64,000 bases of DNA from an uncultured delta proteobacterium (GTDB lineage: Bacteria > Desulfobacterota > Binatia > UTPRO1): assembly GCA_963797545.1 (NCBI GenBank), contig CAWCPU010000010.1, positions 61,732-125,731 of the forward strand. The letters run 5' to 3'. The notes beneath the pieces were generated by a model. It saw nothing but the letters and a program-made list of their open reading frames with translations, was not told the origin of the DNA and did no database searches. The position numbers were made by a program, and so were the translations under genes. Below, piece after piece: positions 57,836-58,939 of this stretch (positions are counted from its first letter, which is position 1; the number at the start of each line of letters is the position of its first letter).

Positions 57836-58504
57836 ATGACGCAGCTAGCGAACGGGAGCGCCGCGGGCAAATCGAATCCACACCAGAGCAAGATCTACTC
57901 GGAGTTCTCTCACCTCTACGACAAGATTTTCGAGCGCGTGTTCTTCCCGCGCATCACACGCGTCGTGAGCTCGCTGCGTATTCCGCCGGGCGCGCGCGTT
58001 CTCGAGCTCGGCGTCGGTACCGGCTTGTCGCTGAGCGCGTATCCCTCGCACTGTGAGGTCGTCGGCGTCGATCTCGCGCGCGACATGCTCGAGCAGGCGG
58101 AGGAGAAGATTCACCGCAATCGGTGGTCGCACATCACGCTCCAGCAGATGGACGCGCTGGATCTGCGGTTTCCGAGCGACAGCTTCGACTACGTGACGGC
58201 TTTCCACGTGATCAGCGTCGTGCCCGACGCGCACCGCATGATGGACGAGGCGACGCGCGTCTGCCGGAGAGACGGCACGATCGTGCTGATCAATCACTTT
58301 CGGAGCCAGCGCCCGGTGATCGGGACGCTGGTCGATCTCGTCGATCCGGTGACGCGGAAGCTCGGCTGGCGCACGACCCTGCGGCTCGCCGACGTTCTGA
58401 ACGACGCGCCGGTCGAGGTCGCGCAGTGCTACAAGACCTCGCCGCGGTCGTTGTTCACGGTCCTGGTGGCGCGCAACCGTAAGGAGCTCGCCGCCGTCGG
58501 CTGA
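57836..58504 (+). CDS. SAM-dependent methyltransferase, phosphatidylethanolamine N-methyltransferase (PmtA)-like
   Basis: YD..F..VF, VLELGVGTGLSL..YP, MDA..L.FPSDSFD, SVVPD, INHF, LGW. Confidence 0.8.
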   Translation: MTQLANGSAAGKSNPHQSKIYSEFSHLYDKIFERVFFPRITRVVSSLRIPPGARVLELGVGTGLSLSAYPSHCEVVGVDLARDMLEQAEEKIHRNRWSHITLQQMDALDLRFPSDSFDYVTAFHVISVVPDAHRMMDEATRVCRRDGTIVLINHFRSQRPVIGTLVDLVDPVTRKLGWRTTLRLADVLNDAPVEVAQCYKTSPRSLFTVLVARNRKELAAVG

Positions 58505-58616
58505 GCGCCGTTCGCCCGGACTTTCGGTGCAACCGACGCCCGCGCGCTGCGGCCCTTCGCCGACCTCGTATCGACGCGTACGCTACCCGTCCGATCTCCG
58601 CAGCTCGCTGCGCTCC

Positions 58617-58825
58617 TGTGGATAAGCTGTAGATTCGGAGCGGTCAGTATTATCAACGACTTGCACCGACGGAGCACTCGATCGCGCACAACCGTCAACA
58701 ATGCGTGATCCACGACGCGTAAGTCGCTGATTCCTCAGCAGGAGTCTCGCTGTAACCCAGCGATCATCGAGTGATGACTACGTAGGTGCACGGCAGATCC
58801 TCCCCTGTGGATAACCTGTGGGCAG
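58617..58825. promoter_or_regulatory. DnaA-box cluster with two IHF-consensus sites
   Basis: Perfect TGTGGATAA at 58617 and 58806, each followed after 2 nt by a degenerate box; 2-mismatch boxes at 58650 and 58706; IHF WATCAANNNNTTR exact at 58651-58663 and 1-mismatch on the minus strand at 58720-58732. Confidence 0.65.
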
Positions 58826-58867
58826 GCGAAGCGTCCGGACACGATCGATGATCGACATCAAGGCGAA

Positions 58868-58939
58868 TGCCCCCGCCCAGAATCGAACTGGGACTTAGGG
58901 TTCCGGAGACCCTCGTGATGTCCTTTTCACTACGGGGGC
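58868..58939 (-). tRNA. tRNA-Arg(CCG)
   Basis: GCCCCCG/CGGGGGC acceptor stem, AGGGT-CT CCG GA-ACCCT anticodon arm, CCCAG TTCGATT CTGGG T-arm; CCA not encoded. Confidence 0.93.

Follow-up and report, generated by a model that had tools for sequence, protein, structure and literature searches.

A conserved DnaA-box and IHF-consensus module, a candidate datA-like locus, in the terminus region of a Binatia family

To our knowledge, what is understood of DnaA control by loci outside the origin (datA, DARS1 and DARS2) comes almost entirely from E. coli and its close relatives. IHF-dependent control is regarded as restricted to a few phyla (PMC10380432). In a 64,000-nt stretch of an uncultured Binatia genome (hereafter the window), an intergenic spacer holds a cluster of DnaA boxes and IHF-consensus sites. 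What does such a cluster do there? A preliminary description of the window offered two answers, a replication origin at an unusual location and, as the likelier one, an undescribed DnaA-regulatory locus. Here we compared the spacer with related genomes, located it relative to the origin and terminus of replication, and weighed the possible functions against each other.

The module in the window and in its family

The spacer (58505..58867, no strand assigned, 363 bp) lies between a class I SAM methyltransferase gene (57836..58504, + strand; Pfam Methyltransf_11/25) and a tRNA-Arg(CCG) gene (58868..58939, - strand; found by ARAGORN and Rfam), which served as left and right synteny anchors. Both genes have their 3' ends toward the module and both are transcribed toward the spacer. 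The GC content of the spacer is 60.6% vs ~70% for the genome, in agreement with its earlier description as lower-GC intergenic DNA. No promoter-like site and no intrinsic terminator was detectable in the spacer. A structured RNA was considered and ruled out: the tRNA was the sole Rfam match in the spacer region and RNAalifold found 0 consensus pairs among 13 family sequences. Single-sequence folding gave z-scores of -1.0 and -2.4, and the modest minus-strand value arises because the two IHF-like sites described below make an inverted repeat, in this genome only.

Two perfect DnaA boxes about 190 bp apart had been reported and both are present. Box 1a is located at 58617..58625 on the + strand (reading TGTGGATAA on the + strand and TTATCCACA on the - strand) and box 2, also a perfect TGTGGATAA, at 58806..58814 on the + strand, co-directional with box 1a and 189 bp downstream. 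Each box heads a tandem pair with a 2-nt spacer. Box 1b (TGTAGATTC, 58628..58636, + strand) is the low-affinity partner of box 1a, placed head-to-tail with an 11-bp period, and the partner of box 2 (TGTGGGCAG) occupies 58817..58825 on the + strand. An IHF-consensus site (TATCAACGACTTG, 58651..58663, + strand) shows 0 mismatches to WATCAANNNNTTR and starts 34 bp from the start of box 1a, while a second, inverted IHF-like site (AATCAGCGACTTA, 58720..58732, - strand) fits only the relaxed consensus WATCARNNNNTTR. The spacer also contains three opposite-direction boxes with two mismatches each. Shuffles of the window predict 0.04 perfect boxes vs the 2 present in the spacer, and boxes with up to two mismatches number 5 in these 363 bp vs 0.19 expected at the density of the window.

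The whole assembly (6.24 Mb in 15 contigs) has 7 perfect DnaA boxes. The five outside the spacer are isolated singles, and no second place in the 6.24-Mb genome contains three or more boxes (up to one mismatch) within 500 bp. Perfect boxes were also seen in two other settings in this assembly. Those at C3:436004 and C9:260492 belong to a repeated element that ends in an AT-rich tail and whose copies there (>500 bp) are near-identical. On contig C12, at ~162.75-163.02 kb, a perfect box stands beside 3-4 direct repeats of cctagtgaaagcacgaac in AT-rich DNA, and these repeats look like an iteron-type origin of a plasmid or integrated element.

When the spacer was compared by blastn with 40 relatives, no match was found. 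Conservation was revealed by anchoring on the methyltransferase gene, whose orthologues (68-85% identity) are present in 17 of the 19 genomes of the window's family (f1). The DNA downstream of the orthologue was taken from 13 of the 17 genomes, giving 14 family sequences from 5 genera with the window included. All 13 relatives possess a convergent spacer that ends at tRNA-Arg(CCG) and contains two same-strand boxes, and conservation beside this tRNA gene is thereby established. The family alignment shows four blocks kept amid otherwise unalignable spacer DNA: cTGT[G/T]GATAA-NN-TGTNGAT, then WWTCARnnACTTR at an offset of 33-34 from the first box, a weak TAA...CTGA, and TGTGGATAAC. Box 1a takes the form TGT[G/T]GATAA and box 2 the form TGTGGA[T/C]A[A/G] in 14/14 sequences, box 1b retains the form TGTNGAT across the family, and the three boxes share one direction in every sequence. 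The distance from box 1a to box 2 is exactly 214 bp in 10 of the 14 sequences (two genera). The window's genus has 189 bp, and two others have 217 and 224 bp. A further weakly conserved block, rCGTGmkCCAgA, was noticed in genera g3 and g5 (58675-58700 region of the window; alignment columns ~180-195), where it precedes box 2 by ~45-50 bp; in g3 it is not a DnaA box.

The other elements fared unequally in this comparison. Twelve of the 14 sequences carry the IHF consensus at an offset of 33-34 with no more than one mismatch, the consensus positions being kept and the N positions 7-8 varying; the block carries an extra invariant AC (ACTTG) and is missing from the other 2 family members. Of the two inward IHF-consensus sites that had been described, both exist in the window, but the second recurs at the same offset in only 3/14 sequences. 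Likewise, both tandem pairs are real and the first is kept in the family, but the partner of box 2 is genus-specific, occurring only in the window and one relative of the same genus. The opposite-orientation boxes are present as described, but their conservation in the family sequences is no better than that of shuffles.

In some relatives the locus holds all the perfect boxes there are. In G018 (7.7 Mb) both perfect TTATCCACA boxes at the locus are the only ones in the genome, and the single perfect box of G012 (4.9 Mb) is the one at the locus. G018, G012, G013 and G004 together have 3 perfect boxes elsewhere vs 27 matches for a reversed-pattern control.

Position relative to the origin and terminus of replication

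Several features invite the reading that the spacer is the chromosomal oriC, or a second origin served by a second DnaA paralogue: the genome's strongest DnaA boxes are here, the placement of a box beside an IHF site is reminiscent of R1-IBS in E. coli oriC, and a second dnaA gene is found 100-200 kb away. The left half of E. coli oriC (R1-IBS-R5M...) resembles the locus in having a high-affinity box that adjoins an IHF site and is followed by same-direction boxes, and in the 2-nt spacer between tandem boxes. It differs in that the present locus is without a DUE, trios and a skew minimum, and the pair is bordered on its outer side by a coding region. The absence of a DnaA-trio run and of a long AT-rich unwinding element had already been remarked on, and scanning the 363 bp again revealed neither; the converging flanking genes moreover leave no room for a DUE, which speaks against an origin.

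The skew data are also against it. On contig C10, which contains the window, the cumulative GC skew climbs to 148.6 kb and then drops, with the site at 120.3 kb, and contig C5 shows negative skew along all of its 1.47 Mb. Synteny with G018 orders the contigs C10(+), C14(-), C5(+); a junction of C10 with contig C12, which carries dnaA, was considered and rejected. For G018 the skew was computed from 40 sampled windows plus a contiguous 400 kb of a 7.0-Mb contig. It is positive from 1.15 to 2.55 Mb and negative from 2.6 to ~5.5 Mb, and its cumulative maximum at 2,580,634 is close to the site at 2,636,992-2,637,214. The G-rich strand carries 45 of the 61 tRNA genes and the single rRNA operon, which indicates the usual skew polarity; polarity was taken from tRNA and rRNA orientation, gene-strand bias from a crude ORF caller being uninformative. 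With this polarity, the switch from plus to minus means that replication forks converge at the site. In both genomes the site is thus near a cumulative skew maximum and not the minimum that an oriC would show. In the window's genome the sole rRNA operon, found by primer motifs, maps to C5:159.2-161.1 kb; the dif-like site described next is ~130 kb away, and a terminus-proximal rRNA operon is an unusual placement.

A search with the E. coli dif consensus, allowing up to 5 mismatches, gave no match. A relaxed search with ATAA-N6-TTATG found one site per genome. The window's genome has a single copy of the dif-like sequence CCGATAA-GCGGGA-TTATGT (C5:29,903; G000:C5:29893-29923), and 15 of the 19 f1 genomes have one each, with 0 matches for the reversed control. 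Its full form is CCAAyGTCCGATAA-GCGGGA-TTATGTwAACC, located in G018 at C6:2701557-2701590. Variants of the form GATAAGAyAyrTTATGT were observed once per genome in families f3, f4, f10 and f11. The distance from the module to this unique dif-like site is 64 kb in G018, 87 kb in G013, 118 kb in G012 and ~101 kb in the window's genome. The second dnaA gene (dnaA-2; C5 ~72.9-74.3 kb in the window's genome, loci L002/L003, and C6:2739289-2740614 in G018, locus L043) follows 19-78 kb beyond dif in every f1 genome that has both on one contig, and the order site, dif, dnaA-2 is kept in 4 genomes of 3 genera, wherever contigs allow.

A better origin was found next to the canonical dnaA gene. Contig C12 carries hemL-dnaA-dnaN, and its cumulative skew minimum at 109,728 adjoins dnaA; in G018 the skew changes from minus to plus near 5.6-5.9 Mb, with dnaA at 5.948 Mb. 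The dnaA-dnaN spacers of 4 genera share a TGTGGATrr box and, after it, three degenerate nnTGGAnnn boxes with an 11-bp period, a TCCAC box, an AT-rich stretch, and CCTACTACTAyTA, which corresponds to TAG trios on the other strand. The boxes in this spacer are all weak, and in G018 none of them comes within two mismatches of the consensus. The dnaA-dnaN spacer is likely the oriC of the lineage. We concluded that the site sits in the terminus region and not at oriC: the plus-to-minus skew switch, the nearby dif-like site, the converging genes and the better candidate at the skew minimum together refute the origin proposed in the preliminary description.

The proteins that could act at the module are encoded. 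In the window's genome, the IHF alpha and beta genes score 128.8 and 120.8 bits vs NCBIfam equivalog cut-offs of 111 and 115, respectively. The relatives encode two full-length DnaA proteins, both above the TIGR00362 cut-off. DnaA-2 (442-471 aa; 38-40% identity to E. coli DnaA) retains the Walker A and B motifs, the arginine finger R285, the sensor II residue R334 and the base-contacting residues R399, D433, H434 and H439, and either paralogue could read TTATCCACA. Both dnaA genes of the window's assembly are read as split frames. The canonical one (L001; C12:107-110.5 kb) is spread over three reading frames by assembly frameshifts and its orthologues are intact. This assembly appears to be rich in indels, which is probably the reason for its completeness estimate of 68.6%.

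Distribution across the class

The pattern TGTKGATAANNTGTNGA was found in 75 of 251 genomes of the class vs 2 for the reversed control. Head-to-tail perfect boxes, (TGTGGATAACC)n, fill the dnaA-dnaN spacer of family f8 with an 11-bp period and a copy number that varies from 3 to 14 between genomes (loci L055-L076; for example G130:C1:4923704-4923852 and G151:C1:293348-293485). On the contigs examined (21 genomes), the f8 matches are located at oriC, except for one non-origin pair in G201. Since these origin arrays use TGTGGATAA with a 2-nt spacer, this arrangement is the real DnaA grammar of the class.

A different picture was seen in f6, f10, f13 and the f11 genome G071, which have a single pair with a same-direction box 185-196 bp downstream, once per genome; the other f11 genomes have only a 2-mismatch GTGGAGAA at the position of the distal box. 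The flanking genes of these modules are other than those of f1, and a clear IHF consensus is absent from the modules of f10, f11 and f13. In the f11 and f13 modules (L154-L158, L163 and L164), the inverted repeat CTTGGATTGCC-N8/9-GGCAA was observed ~50 bp past the box pair, occupying the place of the IHF-like block of f1.

Two dnaA genes are common in 14 of the 20 families of the class. Pattern matches are present in 45 of 122 genomes in two-dnaA families vs 6 of 93 in one-dnaA families without f8, as raw genome counts that ignore kinship. The chromosomal position of the module differs between families. In f10, hemL-dnaA-dnaN is 11-13 kb from the module, which falls within the zone of the skew minimum, and the second dnaA copy of f10 is ~350 kb from dif. 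A dif-like site is found 17 kb from the pair in G071. In another f11 genome and one f6 genome the skew around the module is uniform, and any skew switch is at least 140-200 kb off. We had considered that the module is always at the terminus, and the f10, f6 and f11 positions led us to reject this. Terminus placement is therefore a trait of f1 and not of the module.

A datA-like reading and its alternatives

The comparisons indicate that the spacer is a genuine, selected, non-origin DnaA-box/IHF-consensus module. We favor, with a probability of roughly 0.55, that it is a datA-like locus exerting trans-acting control of the initiator pool through titration, stimulated ATP hydrolysis, or both. 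E. coli datA, the DDAH locus, stimulates the IHF-dependent hydrolysis of ATP carried by DnaA. Its minimal form comprises two strong boxes (2 and 3), one weak box (7) and a single IHF site, and its essential boxes are co-directional (PMC5742627). In MG1655 we measured that datA occupies the convergent spacer from glyY to queG, behind tRNA genes; that its box 2 reads TTATCCACA; that its IHF site, TATCAATAGGTTA, starts 65 bp on; and that 162 bp separate the starts of boxes 2 and 3. Three sequence-level properties of datA recur in the Binatia locus, namely box direction, a single IHF-consensus site (in 12/14 sequences), and a convergent spacer on the side of a tRNA gene. Both loci combine co-directional essential boxes with a weak box beside a strong one, and in both a single IHF site (at sequence level here) falls between two strong boxes in the same orientation relative to them. 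The strong boxes are comparably far apart (162 bp in E. coli vs 189-214 bp here), and both spacers are apparently untranscribed.

There are also differences. In the Binatia locus, 14 bp separate the IHF site from the pair and 142-167 bp separate it from box 2, whereas the distances in datA are ~55 and 85 bp, and with this geometry the looping model of datA is not directly transferable. datA is origin-proximal, a position that is copied early in the round of replication, whereas the f1 locus is terminus-proximal; sequence homology is none beyond the motifs; and the host here is a Binatia MAG with two DnaA paralogues. Geometry, position and lack of homology count against the datA-like reading. 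The IHF-like block with its invariant AC could, in addition, be the site of another protein, and with only 3-4 boxes the capacity for pure titration would be small.

On the other side, 2 of the 7 perfect boxes of the genome stand here in the same direction, 189 bp apart. The retention of boxes, tandem partner and spacing in 13/13 relatives, in a spacer otherwise unalignable, suggests selection on a DnaA-binding arrangement, and the IHF consensus stands at a fixed offset in 12/14 sequences, in a lineage whose window genome encodes IHF alpha and beta. The use of TGTGGATAA with a 2-nt spacer in the f8 arrays is consistent with recognition of the pair by DnaA, and the intact key residues of DnaA-2 would allow both paralogues to take part. 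By analogy, box direction, IHF orientation and the convergent tRNA-side spacer are those of datA. Finally, a module occurring once per genome at varied chromosomal positions (f6, f10, f11 and f13) is what is expected of a trans-acting locus.

The datA-like locus could work as follows. The high-affinity box 1a and its weak head-to-tail neighbour would nucleate a short DnaA oligomer. IHF, bound 14 bp past the box pair, would bend the DNA, and the second high-affinity box, in the same direction and a fixed 189-214 bp away, would then enter the complex. The complex would act on the initiator pool in trans: it would either sequester DnaA (titration) or stimulate the hydrolysis of ATP carried by DnaA, and could thereby set the level of active DnaA that reaches the weak-box origin between dnaA and dnaN. 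Binding by DnaA and IHF is predicted here from the motifs, and so is the direction of the effect, taken to be inactivation or titration and not reactivation. In f1 the locus is fixed in the terminus region, 64-118 kb from dif, and each chromosome would therefore carry a single copy until replication is all but finished.

The reading preferred in the preliminary description, an undescribed DnaA-regulatory locus, agrees with all of these observations: the boxes, spacing and IHF site conserved in 5 genera, the datA-like architecture and the IHF genes. The opposite-direction boxes and the second IHF site, which it also listed, are not conserved. Non-origin clusters of consensus boxes in intergenic DNA are also known from Bacillus subtilis (the DBCs) and Streptomyces (D78), where they are thought to titrate or tune DnaA. 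They resemble the Binatia locus in being intergenic and non-origin, and differ in having more boxes, no IHF site (IHF is absent) and a mostly origin-proximal position. The literature searched contained no published terminus-proximal DnaA-box/IHF locus, second dnaA gene or datA homologue in other bacteria.

Reactivation of DnaA was considered as the opposite activity. In a DARS-like locus, ADP-DnaA would assemble on the boxes and IHF-aided release of ADP would regenerate ATP-DnaA, and duplication of the locus at the terminus would boost reactivation after each round. DARS1 and DARS2 are likewise non-coding DnaA-box clusters away from oriC, the boxes are combined with an IHF site as in DARS2, conservation is strong, and a terminus position might be a sensible timer for non-overlapping cell cycles. 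The DARS core, however, has box I opposing boxes II and III at fixed spacing (PMC5742627), whereas the conserved boxes here are all co-directional and the opposing ones are not conserved; this makes a DARS-like function unlikely.

A role specific to the terminus is doubtful as well. A DnaA-IHF complex, perhaps with DnaA-2, might pause forks, organise the terminus, or report completion or dimer resolution to the initiation machinery. The conserved order of site, dif and dnaA-2 (4 genomes, 3 genera) fits this, as does the f11 pair 17 kb from the dif-like site. But a similar module in f10 is at the skew minimum near dnaA-dnaN, the modules of f6 and another f11 genome are inside uniformly skewed DNA, the distance to dif in f1 varies between 64 and 118 kb, and no mirrored site was found past dif, where the first 1.1 Mb of C5 is without a perfect box. 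The linkage in f1 may also be plain synteny. Since the module is at differing positions between families, regulation of DnaA in trans is more probable than a role confined to the terminus. A related and equally speculative idea is that the strongest DnaA boxes and a second intact dnaA, flanking dif, form a terminus circuit that senses completion or resolution and licenses or blocks the next initiation at the weak-box origin. If true, it would be an undescribed link between ending and starting the chromosome cycle.

It is improbable that the module is a local transcriptional device, that is, a DnaA/IHF roadblock or insulator between convergent transcripts or a regulator of a small transcript. 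DnaA-box complexes do block RNA polymerase in E. coli, as known from work on the asnC terminator, the convergent spacer has no detectable intrinsic terminator, and the f10 pair also directly follows the stop codon of a gene. Such a device would leave the fixed 214-bp spacing and the second box unexplained, as well as the fact that the module is the sole home of consensus boxes in several genomes. The lack of a promoter-like site, Rfam match or conserved RNA structure argues against it too, and so does the persistence of the module across families while the flanking genes change. An origin at the spacer, chromosomal or secondary, is very improbable on the evidence from skew, dif and the dnaA-dnaN spacer given above.

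The locus thus appears to be a single-copy module, deeply conserved in an uncultured phylum, whose grammar is datA-like. In some genomes of 5-8 Mb no consensus DnaA box occurs outside it, and the origin uses weak boxes. This is a caution for origin-prediction tools: the best DnaA-box cluster of a genome can sit at the terminus. If DnaA and IHF bind the module, the datA type of solution would be old, or convergent, outside Proteobacteria, and the position of the locus, at the terminus here and on the origin side in a sister family, would offer a comparative handle on the timing of initiation in slow-growing bacteria.
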